This document shows positions 19,730 to 56,339 of a DNA stretch of 64,000 nucleotides, in pieces. The first letter of the stretch is position 1, and each line of letters opens with the position of its first letter. This DNA is from Balamuthia mandrillaris (lineage: Eukaryota): contig JAVKOQ020000009.1 of NCBI GenBank assembly GCA_031835245.2, positions 310,001-374,000 of the forward strand, read 5' to 3'. A program made the translations under genes and the position numbers. Below the pieces are notes generated by a model. The model worked only from the letters and a program-made list of their open reading frames with translations. It was not told the origin of the DNA and did not search any database.

Positions 19730-20829
19730 CCACCAATTCCGTTTGTTGTTCGCAAGACAAGTCTCCTTTTAACATTACATTTTTCTGTTATTTCCCAACT
19801 GCTACTACTATTGACCAGGCAAATGCTCCACATCCCGTAGATGACCCTCTTTCTCCAGTTTAGCACGTTCAGCACCCAACGCACCATAACATTCGCCAAC
19901 CGTTGCACACTTTTCAATCCAGGTGCTGAGCATGGAGCGCTTCGGGACCTTGTTCACATCAAAGGCCCAGAGCATGGCCATCAACGGCCACACAAAGGCC
20001 TCGCCGACCCGCACCCTCCCTTCCAGCCCCTCCGGCACCACTTCGTGGCCATACTGTCCTTTGGCCGCTGCCAGAATGCAGCCGGTCAGCACCGAGCGAA
20101 AGCTCTGTCGCGAGTAGATATGTTGCACGCAGTCCTTGTAGCATTGAAAGCCCTCAGAGGTAGCTTCCACCGAGAGGCTCCCCAAGAAGCCACCCTTGTG
20201 AGTAAGCTCGGCAACCGCTCTCAGGGTGGAACCGTCCGAGACCCCATTGGTGCACCAAGTCCCACCACCAACAGCATCTTGTTGTTTTGATGAAGGCGAG
20301 GATCGTCCAGGGTGGCTACAGCTGTGATGGAGACGCAGTCCTCAATGGGGTCGCCCAGTCCGTCCTCGTCTCCGGCCATCAGAGAGTCCGAGCCGCCGAG
20401 GAAGTGCACTCGCTGCTGTCCATGACTATCTAAATAACAAGCAATTTGATATAATAATTGCATAGCTCTAATCCATGGATATTCTCCAGTCCTATCCTCT
20501 TGTTCTTTCCAATAAGCTTGTCGTTAAGTGCTGCTTCTTTCTCTTGACTATGCCATAATTGTAAGGCCAAGGGACGGAGTAAGTGCCATGATGTCCGTGC
20601 GGCTGCTGCTGCTGCTAACAAGAAAGCAAAATCATTCTTATTTATATACTACTCAGCATTGACCATCCATCCTAAATCCCATTGATCCCATCATCATCAC
20701 AGTCTCCTCCAAACAACGCGAAACACACCACTTATCGAGGAAGGAGCACATATGGATCTCTGGGGCGTAGTGCTTGCTTGGCACGCTCTCTGCGGTGACT
20801 CGTTTAACTTGCACCGTTCTCTTTGGTTC

Positions 20830-21094
20830 GAAACGGAGTTATCCACGAGAAACTGGGAGGCAAGAAGGTCTTCCGTTGCCCTCGTTGTCACCTGGAAGCG
20901 GACAGAGACATCCATGCGGCCAGGAACATCCTTTTGCGCTTTCTAGCTCGCCAGGACATCATTGTGGACGCGAAGGGAAAAGAAGAGCTGTACGGACAGG
21001 GTCTGGCAGCATTGGGTCCTACCCCCGCGAATGCATTGCCCTCTCGTGGTGCATTTGTGCAAGATTTGCAAAATGTGCAAGTTTAATGTAGGCG
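20830..21094 (+). mobile_element. 5'-truncated TnpB/Fanzor2 (IS607-like) element: nuclease C-terminus plus right end
   Basis: Encodes GVIHEKLGGKKVFRCPRCHLEADRDIHAARNILLRFL, the zinc-ribbon CxxC plus RuvC-III DRD..AARNI of TnpB/Fanzor. Ends at TTTAATGTAGGCG. Flanked by the direct repeat CGTTCTCTTTGGTTC (20815-20829, 21093-21107). Confidence 0.88.
21015..21094 (+). ncRNA. Putative Fanzor omega-RNA scaffold (copy 1)
   Basis: 80 nt overlapping the ORF 3' end. Hairpin CGCGAATGCATTGC/GTGGTGCATTTGTG, second hairpin TTGCA/TGCAA, and CCTAC near the 5' end complementary to terminal GTAGG. Homologous copy at 47554-47633. Confidence 0.7.
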
Positions 21095-21563
21095 TTCTCT
21101 TTGGTTCATCGGGAAGTTGTTCCTCAAAGACCACCGGCGCTTCTCCCTTTATTTCGTCCGTGTCCCCAAAGGAGTAGGACGCGATGACGACCTTCTTGCC
21201 AAGCCTTTTGAGTTCTGGATACAGTATCATGCTGTGCACAAAGTCGAAGCCTCCCCCACACCCGCACAGCATAACCGTTTGTACAGAGGGATCGGCCAGC
21301 CTAGTAACGAATGTTGGCATCAGGAAGGAACTTGGGGTTGCGGGGGAGGCCTTTCCATTACAGCGGCCGCCTTTTCCAGCCCTTTTTGCTTTTACTTGCT
21401 TTTTGCTTTGTCTTTCTTTTCCATCCTTGTTGTAACACCTTATTCTTCCCGTTATATAAGTACTTCATTTTTTGTTGTAAAGAAAAAGTTTAAAGTTCGA
21501 AGCCTGTTCAACGAACGGCAGCAATTGGAGCGAAACTGGGTCAACTGCACTTAACCATAACTG

Positions 21564-23930: not shown

Positions 23931-26900
23931 TCAAGAAAGGGATAAAGAGGAACGGGAAGGGGAGGGAGAGGAGGAGGGTGAGGAGGAGTTGGAGTCAAAC
24001 AGCTTGAACTGAGAGAGCCAGCTGGAGCGATAGTCGGAACGGCATTTGACAAAGTCGAGCAGGTCCGCTCGGTCCATCTTGGCGAGGGCGCTGCTCGACA
24101 GCAGCTCCGACAATTGCTCAGGAGAGACCTGATGGATGTGGGCTACCTCCATCAGCATTGCAAACTTGTCGTTGAGGTTACTGTTCTTTATCTCTTCTTC
24201 TATGCACTTTTTGTACTCTTGTAGGTCCCTTTGTTGCAAACACAGTAAAGAGAAAATAGGTTGGTCAATTGAAAGAAGAAAGCACAAGAGAAACAGAAAG
24301 TGACCAGATCGCTATATTTGTACCTTTGCAACTTCACGCCTCCTAGCCCCTTGCTCACCGGATACTTTTTCAAGTGTGCCATAAGCACTCTTTTTGAAGG
24401 AAAGAAAATAATGAATACTATATGGAGCGGTCGAAGAGAGGGTGAGGAACGAATGTACCTAAAGACCTCGAGACCGTACTCCTCCAAAAAGCTTTGACAG
24501 TTGGCACCATCCAAGTTAGATTGTATGACGGAGACATCAGCCGCGATGGCAGCAACAGCCTGCGCGCAACCAGCGGTCACCTTGTCAATGGCCTCGAAAG
24601 CGTCATCGCTAAGACGAAAGTCTGGTTTCTTCTGCTTGCTTGACAATAACTTGCTCAGATCATTGCTCATCCGTGATAACCAAGACAACAATTAAGGGCG
24701 ATAGTCATATCCAAAACTGAAAAGAAGGAAGAATGAAAGAAGAAAACAAAAAGGATATAATTGAGACAACAATCAAGGCCTTGTGATATGAGATCCTCAA
24801 AATGGTTGAGAAGAGTGTTCTTCTTTTCGAGGCATTGATTTGAAACTGTGCGTGAGGATGACACATGTGGTAGCTATTGATGCGTTTGTTTGCGTTAAGT
24901 ACTTTGAGTTAAACAACCGAATAAAGATAATGTCGTACAATGAGAACATGGAAGTGCCGTTGGATGAGGATAACTATCTGATGGATTAAAATTAACATAG
25001 GTGAGTAAGCTCACACAAATGAATGTTTCTGCTGAAAGTGATATGGGGTGGGGCTGTGAGGCTACACAAGCGCCCGCCCATCACCCACACCACTTCCGTC
25101 GGCTCCATCGGGCAACGCTACGCAACGAGGTTCCGAAGAAGGATGTTGCGCGCTCCATTTACATCGCGATCCAGTCGTATCCCACATAGGAGTCGGCCAG
25201 GCGAGACAGCTAGAAATTTGCTGTCGAACCTCTGTCGACTTGCCCGAGGGAGCCAACGGGAAACGTGGGATGTTTTGGGAAAATACTCAGAAAAACGAAA
25301 TTTCACTTACCTGGTTCACTTGTTGCGTTATTTGGAAGAATGTCGTTGGGGAAGTGCTACTCTTTCTCTTTTTCAATTGCAGAAGGGCACTGAAAGAAGT
25401 TTATGAGCCAAAAAACAACTTGAAGAAAGCGGGTCCATATATACGTACTGTTCAAGAGCTGGACTGAGATATCTGTAGCCCAGGTACTCCAGTAACATCT
25501 CGAAAATTTGATAGAGATTCTGCGAGCTAAAAAGGGGCAACAACAATCCTTAGCGTTCTTTTCAACAATAAACGGCGAGAAGGAAACGTACATGTCTTCC
25601 TTGGAAGAAAGCTCCAAACAACGTTCCACAGCACCCTCACTGCAATGGAGAAAGGCAAAGATGGGTTCCAGCGAGGTTAGGGCTGTTACCGTTGCCAGTT
25701 TTGGTGTTTTTGAGTTTGTGGGTGCGCCGGGCCAACTTCGGGAAGCTCTATTCTTCTCTGCTTCCTGTGTCGAATGGAAACAAATTAGCCAGGCTCATGC
25801 ACAAACAACTCAAGCAAACAAACCTGTTGCAGCTGAGCCAAGTGATTCTCATAAAAGAGACGAAGGTATTTGGTCTCGTTTGAAATGTAGCTGGACATGT
25901 ACTTGTAGAATAAGGACTGCACCATGGAACTAAAATCAAACTGACCAATGTTATATTCTTGCAGAACCTTCACGAACTGACAAGTTTCTGCATGGGCCGA
26001 TTTTAAGATGCGGAGGTAAAACAACAGGGACTCGGGGGATGAGTCTCGAATGTTCAGCATCTTCTCCAAGAACATGCCGATCTACAGCCCGAAGAGAGAG
26101 TTAGAGAGAAATAGAAAGGAAAAAAAGTACTAAGTTAGAGGATGAGGAATGGGTAAATAATAGAGCTGCAATGGATAATACCCGTTGTTCGAAAATCCGT
26201 TGTGCCAACTCTCTCATGACAACTGCTGGATTAGGAAAAACCTTGCTTATGACCTCGTATTCATGCTTGCAAGCGTGCGTTATATCATAGAAGAATGCAT
26301 GTATTCTCGCATCCTCTTTAGTATCTTCCAGTTCGTTTGTGCTGATAGATAACGTTATAAGAGACGAGTAACAGAGATAGAGAGAGAGAGAGAGAGAGAG
26401 AACAATAAAATACCTAATTCTATGTTCACCTGCCTCTGCAAGGGCTGAATCCATATTGATACTCTCAGTATCGAAAAACATGTTCAACTTCATGATATAA
26501 TGCCGGATGCAAGACCCACAGCCATTGAATTCATTCAAGATCGAAGCAACTTCCTATAAAAGCACAAGAAGGATGAAGGTGAATATATGGGCGGTGCCAT
26601 GAATAAACAAATGAGGGCTTTGAATTGCAAGGTAGTACCTTCATCTTTGCATAGTCGTTGCGCTGAGAGGCTTCATCAAATTCCTGTAAGAGCTTGTTTT
26701 CCAACTTGTTACTTTCCTTCTCCACTGCTTCTTTTCCCTAAAGGGGACATAACCTCACCGTAAGCAAACCAATATTTGGGATGGAAATAGTACCATAAAG
26801 AAGGAGAGAGAGAGAGAGAGAAGAAGAAGAAGAAGAAGAAGAAGAAGAAGAAGAAGAAGAAGAACCTCTTTGGTGCGATCTAACAAATGCTCATTCAAGC

Positions 26901-28170
26901 GTAGGCGTTCAGCAACAGGATCCTGCGACAGCGACCATGCAAGATGACGGAACTGCGAACTGGGAGCAGTAGAGGTTGCACCAAGCCCGTTATTAGTGCT
27001 GCTGCCAACGACGCCTCCACTGGAGCCTGCAGTTTGGATGTAGTCCAGATCCTCCCGTTCTTTCCTTGTAAGCTTGACTTCCTCCTCCACTCGCTCCAGC
27101 TCTTGGGTAAAGCTGTTCAACTTCTTAAGAGAGCTGGCTTGCTTGGAGGTCAGTCCATCTTCTTCAACTCCATTTTTTTCACGTTCAGCAGTGCCTTGGT
27201 TTAACTTTATAAAGTGCTGAATGAGATCTATGAACGCAGAGAGAAACAGAATGAGACCATAATGTTATGAAAGGTAACACCCTATCCATTCAAAAAGCAA
27301 GTCTTACAAACCAGCTATCTCTACAGCTTTGCTGCGCTGCTTTTCCAAAGCTTCAAGCCTATCTCCGATTTGTACAGCCGTGTCTCCCACTTTGTAAATC
27401 CTCTGATCCAGTTCTTTGAAGCCTGCAAAAGTTTTCTGTATGCCCATACATAGCATGCCGTCACATTTTGTTTTCTGAATAAGCAACAAACTACAAAGAG
27501 AAGAGAAGAGCAGAGAAGAGAAGAGAACGACGAAGAGAACGATGCAGAGAAGAGAAGAACATATACCTCAAAACTTCGACTTTGTACAGTAACTTTGCTT
27601 TTGTAGGCCTCTTCCTCCGCTTTACAATCCTGCTCTTGGGCCAGCGCCTTCTTCTCTATCTGTTACGATTGTTTGTCAGTAGGGAAGTGAGAGAGAGAAG
27701 AGAGAGAGAGTGAAGAGAGCGAGAGAGAAGAGGAGAAGTGTCAAACAAAAACGGTCACACATGAAGAGGAAAGAAGCTAACCTGCTTCTGCAACTTGTTC
27801 AGCTCCTCCAACGTTCCTTCGAACAGCGTTAAGAAAGGCTTGATGTTGAACAGCACCACTTTTATGGCAAGGAGGAGTGAGCCAGTCACAGAACAGAAAA
27901 AAAAAGAAAGAAAGAAAGAAAACCTTGCTCTTTGTTTTTGTTGTGCTTTGAATTCTTCTCTTCCTCGTCCTTGACAGTCATGTCGTAGACCAGCCTCTTT
28001 GTAATGGTGTCCACATAGTCCCTCACCTCAAAGTCCTCTCTCTGGGGGAGGACGTCAACAAAAAAACAAAGAACGAAAGAAAGAAAGAGAGTCATGGTGA
28101 ACCGCCGCTCACAGCACCACAGCAGGTAGGTTACCTTGAACCGTCGAACATCACCAGGGGCCATACTCAT
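23931..28170 (-). CDS. EXOC5: Exocyst complex component Sec10
   Basis: FKELDQRIYKVGDTAVQIGDRLEALEKQRSKAVE, EYEVISKVFPNPAVVMRELAQRIFEQR, KQKKPDFR, LDGANCQSFLEEYG, DLQEYKKC, FVKCRSDY. Many short introns. Confidence 0.92.
25035..25262 (-). mobile_element. Second TnpB/Fanzor-family remnant with structured RNA, inside a SEC10 intron
   Basis: 25186->25118 encodes CGIRLDRDVNGARNILLRNLVA*, the TnpB RuvC-III motif. Surrounded by inverted repeats. The host intron 24978-25310 (333 nt) is much longer than its neighbours. Confidence 0.75.
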
Positions 28171-28779: not shown

Positions 28780-31180
28780 ATGTCATCCTCCGAACACTCT
28801 TCGGACAGCGAAAGATCGGGCTCGAGGAGCGGGTCATCTGGGCAGGATGGATCCTCTCGTTCGGGTTCCAGGTCTGGATCAAGGTCTGGTTCCTCTCGCT
28901 CCCGCTCTGGAAGCTCCCGAAGCAGGAGCAGGAGCAGAAGCAGGAGCAGGAGCGGTTCCAGCAGGTCTGCTTCTCGCTCTCCTTCAAGGGAGGGTTCCAC
29001 TGTGGAGGAGTCTGCCACCAAGGGAACCGCCACATCGCAGCAAAGCAACAGCGACAGTGACAAGGGATCCCGTTCGCGCTCTCGCTCTCGCTCTCGTTCT
29101 GGGAGCTCTCGTTCTCGTTCGCGCTCTCGCTCTGCCTCCCGTTCTAGGAGCAGCCGAAGCAAGGGCAGCGAGCGCAGAAGTTACGATGACAGCTACTCAG
29201 AGGACTACTACAGCAGCGAAGGAGAGTATAGCGACGAGTATTCTGATGATGATGACAAGTCTGACGCGAAGAAGCAAGCCTTTGCTGAAATGCCTCAGCC
29301 CAAGGTTCCCGATGAGAACCGCATCTTTGCTGATCCTTACGCGGCTGGGTTTGTTGACTCTGTTTTTTTTTTTTTGAAAAGCTTTGCATGGCTGGATGGG
29401 TTCGAGAAAAAACACTAACCTTTTGTTCGGTTTATCCTACGACAGCTTGCAGGAGAACATTAAGCAGCTGAGCTTGCATGCACTTAATGTGCAGAAGAAG
29501 GAGATCGCTGCCATGAAAGAGTTCACCGCTACATTTAAGGGCATGAAGGAGACAGATCCCAAGAAGGAGGAGAGCCAGAGGACCGAGACCGCTGACAAGA
29601 TCGCGGACATTAGGGCCGAGAGGAAAAAGTACCGAGGCCTCCTGTACGACGCCATTAAAGAGCGTAACAACCTGATCGAAAGCAGAGATATTGCTAAGCG
29701 TGAGGAGAGGCTTGCTAAGAACAGGGTAAGAATGAAAGATATCAGAATAACTTGAAAAATGTAGAAGGAGCTAACCTTAATTGATACACAGGCAGACAGA
29801 GTGGATCCTTATGGCGGCTTCGATCTGTTCCTGTTTGCCTTCTTCGTGATGGAGGTGATCCTGTTGGTGATTTACATCATTCTGTTGGACTACAAGAACA
29901 ACCCCTTCCCATCCGATCCGGTCGTAGTACAGAGGGACGCCACCCTCATCCAAGGAACGCCCAACCGTATTGACTACCTCTACTCGTTCTATTTTGGCAT
30001 CGCTGTCTTTGTATTCGTAGGTCTGAGCTTCACGTCCACATGGCTGCGAAGATATTCCTACTCCGCTATGGGGCTGCACTTCCTGATGGGTGTGGTGGCC
30101 TTCCAGTGGGCCCTCTTCTGGAACGGTCTCTGGATTGCGGCAGAGGCTGACAAGGACAAGATCAAGCTGGAGATTGACGATATTGTGAAGGCGGCCTATG
30201 CTGCCGCCTCTGTGATGATAGGCTTGGGAGCCGTCATTGGCAGGATAAACTCCCTGCAGGCCTTGGCCTACACCTTTGTGGCCGCCATCACCTGGACCGG
30301 CAACTACTGGATCTGTCAACATGAGATCGAGGCCAACGATGTGGGTGGCAGCATGACCATCCACCTCTTCGGTGCCATCTTTGGCGTGGCCGTCTCGTTT
30401 GGCCTCAGCTTTGGCGATAAGAAGAACTATACGGCCGCTGGTGAGCACGAGCGCCCATACTACTTCGGAGATGTTATGAGCTTCCTGGGAAGCCTCCTCA
30501 TCTCCGTCTTCTTCCCTGCTTTCAACGCGGCCCTGGCGCCCGATGGCACGCAGGGACGTGTCGTGGTGAACACGTTGCTCTCCATCCTCTCCGCCGGAGT
30601 GGTCTTCTACTCCTTCTCCAAGTTCTTTGTTAACCCCAGCAAGCTGAGGGCCTTGGACTACCAGAGCGGCTTCCTGGTGGGCGGCATTGCCCTGGCCTCT
30701 GCCCACTCGGTGTGGCTCAGTCCCTGGGAGTCCATGGTCATTGGTAGCGTGGCGGCCATCCTGGTGTGGCCCTGCATCCACTACCTGGCCCCTAGGGTCA
30801 ACAACCCGGACAAGTTGGGTGGCTTGGCTGGCTTCCTTCCGAGGGACACCCGTGGAGTGCTCCCCACTCACGCCCTTGCCGGCTGGTTCGGTGGTCTTGT
30901 TGGCATCATCACCTGCGCTGCTTACGAGGATCAAGCCCGCCACGGCCAAGACTCACACGAAATGTTCCCCCAGGACCCCGAGCAAGCCTTGGCCTTGTTC
31001 TTCACTTGGCTCATCTGCTTCTTCTTGCCCCTCGGCATGGGTCTCCTCACGGGTGCCTTCATGTTCCTCCTCGACAAAACCGTGCCCTCCGAGGTCTTGC
31101 CTGGCAAGCGCAGGTCCAAGAACAGGAAGTTCCACGATGAGAGCGTCTGGACTGAGCTCCCGCTTGACGTTGATGTTTAA
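28780..31180 (+). CDS. Rh/ammonium transporter family protein with Ser/Arg-rich N-terminal extension
   Basis: FVFVGLSFTSTWLRRYSYSAMG, SVMIGLGAVIGR, DVGGSMTIHLFGAIFG, FLGSLLISVFFPAFNAA, DTRGVLPTHALAG. Upstream exons 28780.. and 29445..29725 splice into it through short introns. Confidence 0.88.
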
Positions 31181-39200: not shown

Positions 39201-42200
39201 GTTGGATTCTAGGGCTATCCTATCGATGAGTTGTCGTGTTTCTTCTTGATTCAGAACTTGATGTTGTGAGAGGGCGATCACTGCGTTCGCTAACAGGCGT
39301 GTGGCGAAAGGAATTATCTTTTTCATGGGTTTGAAGTAGGAAGGATCTGATGGATTAAAGGTCACACAAGTGAGTAAACCCACAAATGCAAGAATGCAGT
39401 GATGGCGTGGGCTAGAGGGCTACAGAAACGCCCATCCCATGGGGCTTGTATGGTAGTTTGGGAAATAAAACAGAAAAAGCACATTTCACTTACCTGTTAC
39501 AGTCATCAGCGCTCGGGTGAACAAGGCATTATGCAGTTGCTGCAGATCGGTGTTGTGCAACAAAGTGAGACGAACATTGCTATGCTTTTGTTCCTCCTGT
39601 GCCTAATAATTTTGTGAATCACATTTTATGTCACAGCCAACAAAGTAGAAACCGTTTGACATTAGCAAACTTACCACAAAAAGCAGCGTATCCAACGCAA
39701 GCTCTGCACCTTTAATTGTTGTCAAATCAACGACAACCTGGTTAGATATGGACTTAACCAAATGGTCCGCTAAGTAAGCAACCAAATAAAGAGGTACAAG
39801 TTAGTAATGGAGCAAGCAAAAAGAATATAACGCTTCCCCAGTATACTCACCAGAGGGCGACGCAAAGTAACGGGTGTTAAAGAGGTCCACATGTCGCAAT
39901 AACGGAACAAAGGTAATCTCGCTGGGAGGCGCGCATATTTTAGGGTTGTACCTGCTGAAAGTGCCAGGCTTGGACAAGTGCCAGCTGTAAACATCGTCTT
40001 GAGGCGAGAGTTCGTGTGCCGTGAGCGCGTTGGCTACTTCGGCGTAGCCGTAGTAGGCTACCTTCATAAGCTCTTGCTCAAACTGTGCGATGAATAATGC
40101 TGTCAATCCTCATTCCCGAACTCAAACAAGGTGTATACACAAGGTAGACGAGGGCAGTACCATACGAATGGTTGCGGGTGTGTACTGATTCACCACGCCA
40201 TTTGAAAAAACGAAAACTTCCTGTTGTGGATCCTTGAGAACAGCACCTTTGGTACGCATGAAGGCTAGCATTTTGCGTATATTGGCATCATAGCGGTTAC
40301 TCTCTGCAATATTGGTCCTCCAAGAGATATTTACTTCATCCTCTGCTACGCTGGATGAATATATAGCCTGTTTAAAGGCGTTGATGAAATCCTCTTCGCT
40401 CAGTGCACTGGTTTCATCCATTTCTCGTGCCATAATATAAGCCTTATAATAATACAATAATACTAGTCAGAATGGCCAAGCTACAAGAAGCTATAGAAAT
40501 GAAAGGGAAAGACCTTTTTGAGGAACATTGCAGCTTTGCGCATTCCATGATGGTCATGAATGTAAAAGTAGGCTCGAACAACATGAAGCACGAGTGGATC
40601 GAGGTCGTCCATGTTGATAAGATCCAACGACTCTTTCTGTTGCTTGCCAGAGGAAAGCAAAGCACCACTGCTGGCTAGCTCTTGGAGTTCTTCAGAGGAA
40701 TAATGACTTTTGGCTTCATACTCTGATGATGAGGGAATATGAAACAGGAAGCCGAAGCGGATCGGGATGTTGCTTGCCCAAATCTCGCATGCTCTTGACA
40801 GTAGCTGGAGACCGATAGGACTCGTGGGATTAGCCACCATTACCATGGTAAACAGATTTCTTTTCAGGCGGACAAAGGTCCCAGGGAATGTTTGCGAAAA
40901 TACCTATTAACAACAATTATTTAAGAGTGGGTGAGATGGAGCGAGAAAGAGGGTTTGGGGGCAGTTACAGTGGTTAAACTGGAGGACCACTGAGAATACA
41001 TTGCGTCTGTCTCCAAGTCGTTGACCCACGAAATCGAATTTTTAAAGGGGAATTCCTCCTCGTCATCATCGTCCACACCGGGAACATCATCACGCAAGTC
41101 GAACCTCATATCAGAAAATTGGGGTTGTTGGGAAAGAGCAGTTGAGGCAATATCACTACTCAGGCCCTTGCTAGTTAAAAAGGCCATGCGATCGTGTTGT
41201 TCTCTCAGCGCAGAAAACATACTATCGGCAATGAACGTCCATTCTTGGTTAGAAGCAAAAAGTGGAGAAGCAGAAGAGGAGGGCTTACCTATAGGCATTG
41301 ATGTTATCGTGGAAAAAGGGGATGCCATTTATAACGAGCCCTTCAGAAAACATCATCTGATAGGCAAGTACCTGTTTGTTGGCATCAATATTTTCTTGAA
41401 TGGTGGCATTCAATTTTACTTTGCTAAGAGAGGCTGCTGCCGGAGGAAAGTTCTGACTGATGTCACGCATGACCATCAACGGATCGGACGCTTGTATGAT
41501 CCGTTGACTAGCTTGATAGCCCAAATCTATGAAAGGGAGAAAGAGAATAAAAAAGGAGAGAGATAGGGAAACGAACGGAACAGTCAGCGCAATGCTTATT
41601 TTTGCAATGCCTGTACTAGAATAGAGCAACAGGAAGTCGAACCTTTAACTTGCCATGCCTTAAGCTGGCCAAAATCGTGCTCCTGGACGGTGAGCAAAAG
41701 ATAGTCTTTAAAGGCATCCAGCTTGGAAGCTAGCTCAGGCTTTCGCTCTTTCAAGCGTTTAAACATGAATCCCTCGACCTCACCTTCCTCTTCTTCGCCA
41801 GCGCTCAACACCTGTTGTTCTTCCCCGCCGTCGCCCTCGACTTGAGTGTCATCGATGGCCTTGTACTCGGTGCTCTTGACTACCAGCTCCACGCCGTATC
41901 CCTGAAGGGGCAGTGGTACCGCACTTTTGGGGTACGAGTGACGCAAGGCGTAGTGGAGAAGGCCGTTGGTGGAGGCCTCCTTCAACAAGTTGTGATACTC
42001 CAAAAATTCCTCCGAAGCAAAGCTAGCATAGAGAACTGCCTCGATGGCAGCCTTTGGTTGTTTGCTCGGGTGAACGTGCTCCTGCTTGCCCAACAGAAAC
42101 AGGGTCGCGTGCTCGGTAGCCTTTGTGTTGCCCTCAGCAGCATGCAAAAGGGCCTGCTGTAGGTCATCCTTGCTGCAGATCCGCTGGGAGAGGTGCGAGA

Positions 42201-47462: not shown

Positions 47463-47756
47463 TTGTTCACGCCAAAATTTCATCAAGGAATACAACGACT
47501 GGAAAGAAAAGGAAGGACCAAGACGGGTCCAGAAGCTGTTCAGTTCGTAGGAGCGCCTACATTAAACTTGCACATTTTGCAAATCTTGCACAAATGCACC
47601 ACAATGGGTGGATGCATTCACGGGTGTAGGACCTTGTATGAGCGCTTGTTAGTTTTACAGCAGACAATGATGGAAACCCTCAAAATGCAGGATGAGGCGA
47701 TCGCATTGGTGGACAAGCTGGAGGAAAGGAATCGCAAACAAAGAAAGTGGTTATGA
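47463..47756 (+). other. Short helical ORF or gene fragment carrying an in-frame 90-nt insertion
   Basis: Removing 47544-47633 restores EAVQLYERLLVLQQTMMETLKMQDEAIALVDKLEE, which reads as an amphipathic, TPR-like helix. Expression unknown. Confidence 0.35.
47554..47633 (-). ncRNA. Putative Fanzor omega-RNA scaffold (copy 2, ORF-less)
   Basis: The reverse complement, GGTCCTACACCCGTGAATGCATCCACCCATTGTGGTGCATTTGTGCAAGATTTGCAAAATGTGCAAGTTTAATGTAGGCG, aligns end to end with 21015-21094. The 3' part is identical and the differences cluster in and near hairpin 1. Confidence 0.8.
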
Positions 47757-56309: not shown

Positions 56310-56339
56310 TTTGCCACACTTCAAGATTTAATGTAGGCG
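56310..56339 (+). mobile_element. Possible degraded right-end fragment of the same Fanzor family
   Basis: CAAGATTTAATGTAGGCG versus the scaffold terminus CAAGTTTAATGTAGGCG, in the intergenic gap between STAT and DHX16. Confidence 0.4.

Follow-up and report, generated by a model that had tools for sequence, protein, structure and literature searches.

A spliceosomal intron of Balamuthia mandrillaris SEC10 that is probably a deletion derivative of an IS607-type Fanzor2 element

Introduction

The origin and fixation of new spliceosomal introns are still an open question: the known Introners account for the insertion of an intron, not for an advantage over the intron-less allele. Mobile elements of the IS607 type, according to the passages of PMC6188088, carry neither terminal inverted repeats (TIRs) nor target duplications and cross over within a shared 2-bp core, normally GG. 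A terminal pseudoknot has been reported for both IS607 TnpB and Fanzor2 (excerpts of PMC10711439 and PMC11832414). In the bacterial IStrons, guide formation and splicing compete, the two fates being exclusive (portions of PMC13521648 and 10.1101/2023.11.20.567912).

Here we characterize a 333-nt intron of the SEC10 gene within a 64-kb window (the whole stretch of Balamuthia mandrillaris DNA that was analysed), for which a preliminary description had reported a second Fanzor remnant with long RNA stems. The ends of this intron are those of a repeated family and coincide with its splice sites; the SEC10 copy is spliced, a sister copy has an empty allele, the ancestry is Fanzor2, and the copies form a deletion series. 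Our best reading is that the family is an IS607/Fanzor2 Introner of the non-autonomous kind and corresponds, on the spliceosomal side, to the bacterial IStrons. For the SEC10 intron we assign a probability of roughly 0.7 to its being an internally deleted copy of a Fanzor2 element whose ends are splice sites, removed by the spliceosome, probably mobilized in trans by an IS607-type recombinase, and with a right end that is a predicted scaffold guided by the next exon.

Results

The host gene, SEC10, lies on the minus strand (approximate extent 23931..27264) and was recognized by Pfam Sec10_HB matches on five read-through ORFs, four of them above the cut-off. Its reading frame is open only with 25310-24978 taken out, a GT..AG intron of phase 0 that is, at 333 nt, enlarged as previously described relative to nearby SEC10 introns (59–100 nt, borders read by eye). 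A joint from 24977 to 25311, skipping exactly these 333 nt, was found in public runs X16 (two reads) and X17 (one read) and in a contig of run X5, which is tagged as DNA and behaves as RNA, since its pieces stop at exon borders. Run X1, the sole DNA run compared at this site, carries the intron with 0 differences and yielded no empty form; the joined form in RNA could derive from another strain whose allele lacks the intron.

When the window was searched against itself, the ends of this intron were found to recur, with 30 of 37 identical columns on the left and 36 of 44 on the right, in a second intron 14 kb away, which belongs to an unrelated gene with a Thioredoxin_15 domain. This sister intron (39347..39493, minus strand, 147 nt, phase 1) is a shorter deletion derivative that lacks the Fanzor tail, and the inner stem of the SEC10 intron also matches it, more weakly. 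Both introns read CAG|GTAAGTGAAAT ... TTTAATCCATCAG|AT, and removal restores the frame in each, reading frame being the sole basis for the sister, whose junction has no cover in RNA run X11. No more copies of the family were found within the window. The SEC10 intron (24978..25310) is thus itself the element from end to end, not a remnant "hidden in" an older intron as first proposed, because both of its ends are family ends; the preliminary description had overlooked both the intron as the mobile unit and its sister.

Comparison of the introns between strains, suggested at the outset, showed the sister intron to be precisely absent from DNA of another strain. An 8114-nt contig of run X12 joins 39346 to 39494 with one CAG left and all 147 nt missing (117 letters on the short side of the joint, the CAG being assignable to either side). 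This contig differs from the window at scattered positions and retains the adjoining 72-nt intron, which X11 skips in RNA; it is therefore genomic and comes from a diverged strain in which the site is empty. DNA run X3 holds filled and empty forms of the sister intron, the joined form with just 27 letters on the short side; heterozygosity, mixed strains and ongoing excision are all candidates for the two forms.

Between them, the two copies were compared with 8 of 19 public runs. In four of four runs compared with the SEC10 copy, the match to related sequence breaks off at 24978, the very position of the 3′ splice site, and beyond it the flanks are unlike one another (loose ends in seven contigs of X1, with an agreement of 0.48, five reads of X16, four reads of X17 and three contigs of X5), a pattern repeated at the right terminus in the runs compared with the sister copy (X3, X12, X11 and X15); in organism B (X15), the family right end is joined to two different flanks. 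At this right end the depth, summed over copies, reaches 964 against 18–31 in X1 (~30–50 times the flank), 9276 against 78–90 in X3 (~100 times) and 731 against 12.5 in X12 (~58 times), which suggests, roughly, tens of family copies, a summed depth not being a copy number. Most copies lack the Fanzor tail, depth in X1 being 230–290 at 25100-25160 compared with 964 at the end. Internal deletions of other copies are seen as joints 25015->25288, 25128->25291 and 25145->25240, the last of which retains both arms of the inverted repeat, and as three further joints in runs on the sister copy, with the shortest members measuring ~85 nt. Many copies are read through at the right end in RNA, so that not all of them are spliced introns. 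The runs showed no circle junction, an absence that carries no weight as evidence. Pattern scans for the family ends or the peptide returned 0 matches in viral contigs and 0 in metagenome contigs; three viral and five prokaryotic matches to looser patterns were rejected as chance, being without further similarity or a Fanzor match.

At the left, insertion took place behind CAG (25311..25313), the predicted target-adjacent motif (TAM), which also precedes the sister intron and five of the six displayed left ends of other copies. In these five, two of them inferred from the side lengths of a joint, the match to the family runs through CAG and then stops, whereas the sixth stops at 39492; the six are a sample of the left ends. 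Position -4 in the left flanks reads C, A, A, G and never T (n = 4). The predicted 3-nt TAM CAG also matches the element's own right junction, which speaks against our preferred reading. The left end proper, with the 5′ splice site GTAAGT (25263..25310), shares the 30 of 37 identical nucleotides with 39493-39457, and its depth is raised by other copies. It is followed by the left arm of the long inverted repeat (25240..25262), a predicted mask of the pseudoknot strand, and by internal sequence with a hairpin (25187..25239), which ends at a deletion junction, 25187/25186. No Fanzor profile matches 25187-25239 in any frame, and for the same reason the assignment of 25187-25290 to a Fanzor N-terminus was ruled out.

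Directly beyond this junction, in sense orientation to SEC10 as previously reported, lie the last 22 codons and the stop of a Fanzor2 gene (25118..25186), encoding CGIRLDRDVNGARNILLRNLVA*. The peptide reaches 21.2 bits against Pfam PF07282 (below the cut-off of 26.3) and, in a six-frame search of the window, E 1.5e-8 against a profile of 108 Fanzor2-type proteins, matched by residues CG..NL only, the seeds of the profile having been picked via the remnant peptide itself. The proteins closest to it are Fanzor2, with at most 18 of 22 residues matching among the 193 compared. Of the zinc finger and RD motif, just the last C and DRDxNGARN are left in the SEC10 copy, and the cysteines had been described as lost by the protein. 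Their absence is instead the deletion junction: relatives diverge from the SEC10 copy precisely at 25186/25187, where loose ends begin at 25186 in four of four runs, and their loose letters, read by hand, continue in frame into a C-x4-C finger, in which another cysteine precedes the C of CGIRL by five residues, a spacing found in 13 of the proteins compared. The SEC10 copy accordingly consists of a left end, a deletion, the last 22 codons and a right end. In X17, 16 Fanzor-tail reads with an intact finger compare with one SEC10 junction read, so that longer members of the family are transcribed. The proposed search for parents and copies succeeded for the copies; a search for the parent protein gave 17 candidates, the best 78% identical over 23 aa, and did not recover the full-length parent.

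The stems of the preliminary description are present where it had placed them. The inverted repeat 25240-25262/25094-25115 comprises 20 Watson-Crick pairs, one G-U pair and two unpaired positions, and the best inverted score in the intron is 14, compared with a mean of 7.6 and a maximum of 11 in 100 shuffles; the hairpin at 25205-25225 is present, and the downstream stem 25076-25095/25035-25054 has 15 Watson-Crick pairs, two G-U pairs and three unpaired positions. The intron folds with a z of -4.29 (0 of 100 shuffles equal), and the plus strand, likewise ahead of all 100 shuffles, is equally stable (z -4.94), for which reason folding energy cannot choose the strand. The sister intron (z -0.99) and the right end of the window's other Fanzor2 family, named for its GTAGGCG sequence (z -1.34), fold no better than shuffles. 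The right arm (25094..25117) can alternatively form a small hairpin, depending on whether the left arm is included in the fold, and no substitution in relatives is listed for 25096-25118. Below it, 25035..25095 forms the long stem of a predicted omegaRNA scaffold (z -4.14 for 24978-25097), followed by a short predicted hairpin (25001..25015), whose 3′ strand contains CTCAC, presumably resembling a branch site.

Variants of a related copy in X5 hit nine predicted pairs, of which five hold (two through double changes) and four break. Within the lower long stem, two pairs are kept by compensatory changes on both sides and two more despite a change on one side, while one is broken; outside it, one pair holds and three break. 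The claims of a second, multi-copy Fanzor family with conserved RNA pairing are upheld, and of the testable outcomes named in advance as counting against them, none was found: the family is multi-copy, matches the Fanzor2 profile and carries compensatory changes.

The right terminus of the element (24978..24984) reads CCATC-AG, a predicted pseudoknot strand plus a 2-base core that is also the 3′ splice site, and the final 14 nt of the element are free of listed variants in the four runs compared with the SEC10 copy and again in those compared with the sister. The complement of CCATC, GATGG, lies at +11 from the stop in the loop of the first post-stop hairpin (25109-25105) and is the predicted partner strand of the pseudoknot; another GATGG lies inside the long stem (25082-25078). 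Pairing probabilities, calculated with ViennaRNA, which does not model pseudoknots, depend on the RNA supplied. In the whole intron the favoured partner of GATGG is the left arm (P 0.79), and CCATCAG is unpaired with a probability of 0.74–0.96, versus 0.30 in an RNA starting at the stop codon, where GATGG pairs with the 3′ end (P 0.83). With a 5′ end at 25186 or 25239 the pseudoknot pairing reaches only P 0.15–0.19, a result that weighs against our reading. With both stems looped out, 48 nt are left on the 5′ side and 57 nt on the 3′ side. By analogy with TnpB/Fanzor anatomy, the start of the next SEC10 exon (24957..24977) would be the guide.

No RNA was seen over the unique part of the SEC10 copy, depth being 0 at 25200-25299 in X16 and X17 and at 25200-25279 in X5, a zero that is weakened by the tiny coverage of these three runs and by their not being small-RNA libraries. 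A related copy in X5, with 16 differences, spans the right end (24978-25130) and runs into 173 nt of flank; its depth of 291.8, compared with 80.6 for the SEC10 message, makes it a candidate for an expressed unspliced scaffold with guide. An Rfam search of the window gave no match at the gathering score (three chance matches, E 3.6–9.8). It detected no group I ribozyme core, the best match in the SEC10 intron having E 3.6, and no box C/D or H/ACA snoRNA above chance inside that intron.

The window's GTAGGCG family, to which the SEC10 element had been called unrelated, is distinct in that the right ends of the two show no nucleotide match; it is akin in that their peptide tails show 60% identity across 20 aa and their right-end layout is held in common. 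That layout also occurs in two IS607-Fanzor2 loci, L001:2101-4290 from a giant-virus bin and L132 from a metagenome, which share the right end TTTAAT + 5 nt + GG. Fanzor2 loci as a whole show no enrichment of the motif, and TTTAAT-N5-RG was rejected as a general Fanzor2 right-end mark (5 of 74, shuffle mean 2.1, maximum 6).

Further observations concern this second family and its surroundings. A 5′-truncated copy at 20815-21107 (plus strand) seemingly interrupts an exon of a minus-strand gene. On either side of it stands a direct repeat of 15 nt (20815-20829 = 21093-21107), made up of the core CG and the 13 nt with which the copy's right flank opens. Such a repeat is compatible with cleavage by Fanzor just beyond the TAM and abortive gap repair, or with a target-primed insertion. 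A shorter copy at 47551-47645 (minus strand) has a looser version of the flanking repeat, and 56322-56339 (plus strand) contains just the last 18 nt of the family. At 29765-31180 (plus strand), in a region otherwise rich in introns, lies an intronless gene of the ammonium-transporter family (PF00909), the nearest protein found being 36% identical.

Assignment of the SEC10 family to the IS607 type was weighed against movement of an Introner of Fanzor2 ancestry by another enzyme, either a DDE transposase duplicating CAG or AG or a gap repair started by Fanzor, in place of a serine recombinase. TIRs, which IS607 elements lack, are absent (at most 8 of 15 positions, four end definitions, both copies), and in the related Fanzor2 loci that are nearest to the remnant a same-strand TnpA match occurs in 110 of 160, none of them of the SEC10-intron family; in L001, a MerR-HTH plus resolvase gene overlaps the Fanzor2 gene. 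Six groups of related elements have a right end fixed from two copies (excluded were 5 of 17 pair rows without a clear end and one ambiguous row): it reads 5 nt + GG in four and 5 nt + CG in two, and the exact complement of the terminal 5 nt lies within -42..+24 of the stop in four of the six. AG at the right end was found in 0 of these 6 groups, against our reading and in favour of the other enzyme; likewise, the letters shared by both junctions of the SEC10 family are (C)AG, not the GG core of IS607. CAG on both sides is also compatible with a 3-base target-site duplication, no TnpA match was found in the window, and some Fanzor2 are located in non-IS607 transposons with TIRs (excerpts of PMC13565253). 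On the other side, IS607 crosses over in its shared 2-bp core without any duplication (PMC6188088, in the passages cited above), and the TAM of MmeFz2, TAG, likewise ends in AG (sections of PMC10432273). We regard another enzyme as unlikely and an IS607-type recombinase as likely.

Discussion

The mechanism we propose would begin from family ends that are observed: members start with GTAAGT, finish with CCATCAG and are preceded by CAG, so that insertion in sense into an exon would give CAG|GT...CAG|, a perfect, scarless intron. Filled and empty alleles would then coexist, as seen for the sister copy. Excision and integration would proceed by crossover in a 2-base core, AG instead of the usual GG, and internal deletions would generate the non-autonomous copies of 333, 147 and ~85 nt, the shortest having the size of an ordinary intron. 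RNA left unspliced at the 3′ site is predicted to fold the Fanzor2 pseudoknot over CCATC, the omegaRNA then running from the unspliced right end into the opening bases of the next exon; this scaffold RNA would bind Fanzor made by longer copies and direct it to CAG plus the next exon, that is, to the intron-less allele, where repair would bring the intron back or propagate it. Within the complete pre-mRNA, the left inverted-repeat arm would pair with the pseudoknot strand and free the 3′ splice site, looping out most of the length and favouring splicing; the long inverted repeat is thus predicted to toggle between splicing and guide formation. Most copies retain the ends alone and would be plain passengers. 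That all of these parts operate as a complete spliceosomal IStron in this genome, with IS607 insertion behind CAG, splicing to hide it, exon-guided Fanzor2 homing to fix introns and the inverted repeat as the switch, is a proposal we offer tentatively and consider doubtful as a whole.

Three other explanations are much harder to sustain. The preliminary description envisaged an omegaRNA freed from the spliced intron in the fashion of intronic snoRNAs, which sense orientation, a housekeeping host and a stable fold would suit. The family boundary, however, is the 3′ splice site: the scaffold would end at the intron AG, its guide would be the next exon, and the excised lariat would carry no guide and so cannot yield a working omegaRNA. 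The guide would leave with the mRNA, and guide use and splicing would compete, as splicing and omegaRNA maturation are mutually exclusive in IStrons (PMC13521648 and 10.1101/2023.11.20.567912, as excerpted). We consider snoRNA-like release very improbable; a guide-less scaffold could at most serve as a Fanzor decoy.

A dead Fanzor fragment dropped into a pre-existing intron, with the stems as leftovers and nothing mobile as an intron, would be in keeping with the 22 codons that are all that is left, with the five differences between the SEC10 copy and the commonest right end in the last 38 nt and with the lack of RNA over the unique part of this copy. It is largely refuted, and we give it scarcely any credence, as both intron ends are family ends common to another gene's intron and to deletion forms, and the sister copy has a precise empty site. 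Least probable of all is a precise loss of the intron via spliced cDNA, with a family spread unrelated to its Fanzor ancestry (for example by reverse splicing): gain and loss are indistinguishable from a precise empty site and most copies lack the Fanzor tail (the X1 depths given above), but the same X12 contig keeps the neighbouring intron, and copies that are read through in RNA suggest sites other than introns.

If the IS607/Fanzor2 reading is true, a bacterial insertion-sequence lineage, IS607, joins the sources of nuclear introns, the IStrons gain a spliceosomal counterpart, and a Fanzor2 with a CAG-type TAM is predicted. With respect to fixation, a Fanzor2-derived Introner offers a testable answer, in that its right end makes the 3′ splice site and would also direct a nuclease against alleles lacking the intron. 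Public data already show alleles with and without the intron, Fanzor tails that are expressed, and a series of deletions reaching the size of normal introns.

Among described systems, mirusvirus shintrons (sections of PMC12768974) are similar in being spliceosomal introns tied to an endonuclease, the expected targets of which are alleles without the intron. They differ in relying on protein-guided HNH, GIY-YIG or VSR enzymes and in residing at fixed target genes of viral genomes, whereas targeting by the SEC10 family would be RNA-based and different for each insertion; TnpB, Fanzor and IS607 do not appear in the shintron text PMC12768974.

Fanzor2 and eukaryotic IS607 elements, including ghost loci (PMC3627910, PMC10711439, PMC10530073, PMC10432273, PMC11832414 and PMC3673617, all in excerpt), share with the SEC10 family the C-terminal DRDxNGARN, the lack of TIRs, a terminal pseudoknot strand and a 3-nt TAM ending in the core (both predicted here), and protein-less copies that keep their ends. 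The SEC10 family departs from these excerpted accounts in its core, AG rather than GG or CG, and in that the elements are themselves spliceosomal introns. In the portions available of PMC3627910, PMC10711439 and PMC10432273 the word "intron" is absent, and in those of PMC10530073 it means introns inside Fanzor genes.

Introners (PMC9860276, PMC12130899 and PMC12166617, in part) are like the SEC10 family in comprising similar introns in unrelated genes that are non-autonomous, polymorphic for presence and absence and removed without a scar. The sources listed for them in these portions are different: TIR, LTR, non-LTR, Helitron and Crypton elements. The main texts of the three papers mention neither IS607 nor TnpB, and IS607, TnpB and Fanzor are absent from 12 of the 14 supplement files of PMC12130899. 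Among the matches listed in a literature search, which mostly lacked subscription papers, none combined Introner with Fanzor, TnpB, IS607 or serine recombinase, and for Fanzor together with spliceosomal intron and IS607 the IStron paper was the sole match.

The closest likeness is to the IS607 IStrons (CboIStron; 10.1101/2023.11.20.567912, PMC13521648 and PMC13565253, in excerpt), in which the element ends are the splice sites, the right end doubles as the omegaRNA with a pseudoknot overlapping the 3′ splice site (predicted here), the exon junction left by splicing is identical to the unoccupied DNA site and the guide is the downstream exon (also predicted here). The IStrons described in these excerpts are bacterial elements that use TGGG / GG and rely on a group I ribozyme for splicing. 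The SEC10 element, in contrast, is nuclear, is bounded by GT-AG, sits behind CAG, has no Rfam match and belongs to a family with members of ~85 nt; having no group I ribozyme, it is not an IStron proper. The similarity within its family ends at the splice sites, its SEC10 copy is spliced in frame and its sister varies between presence and absence: it has the tested hallmarks of an Introner, and its way of working is that of an IS607 IStron.
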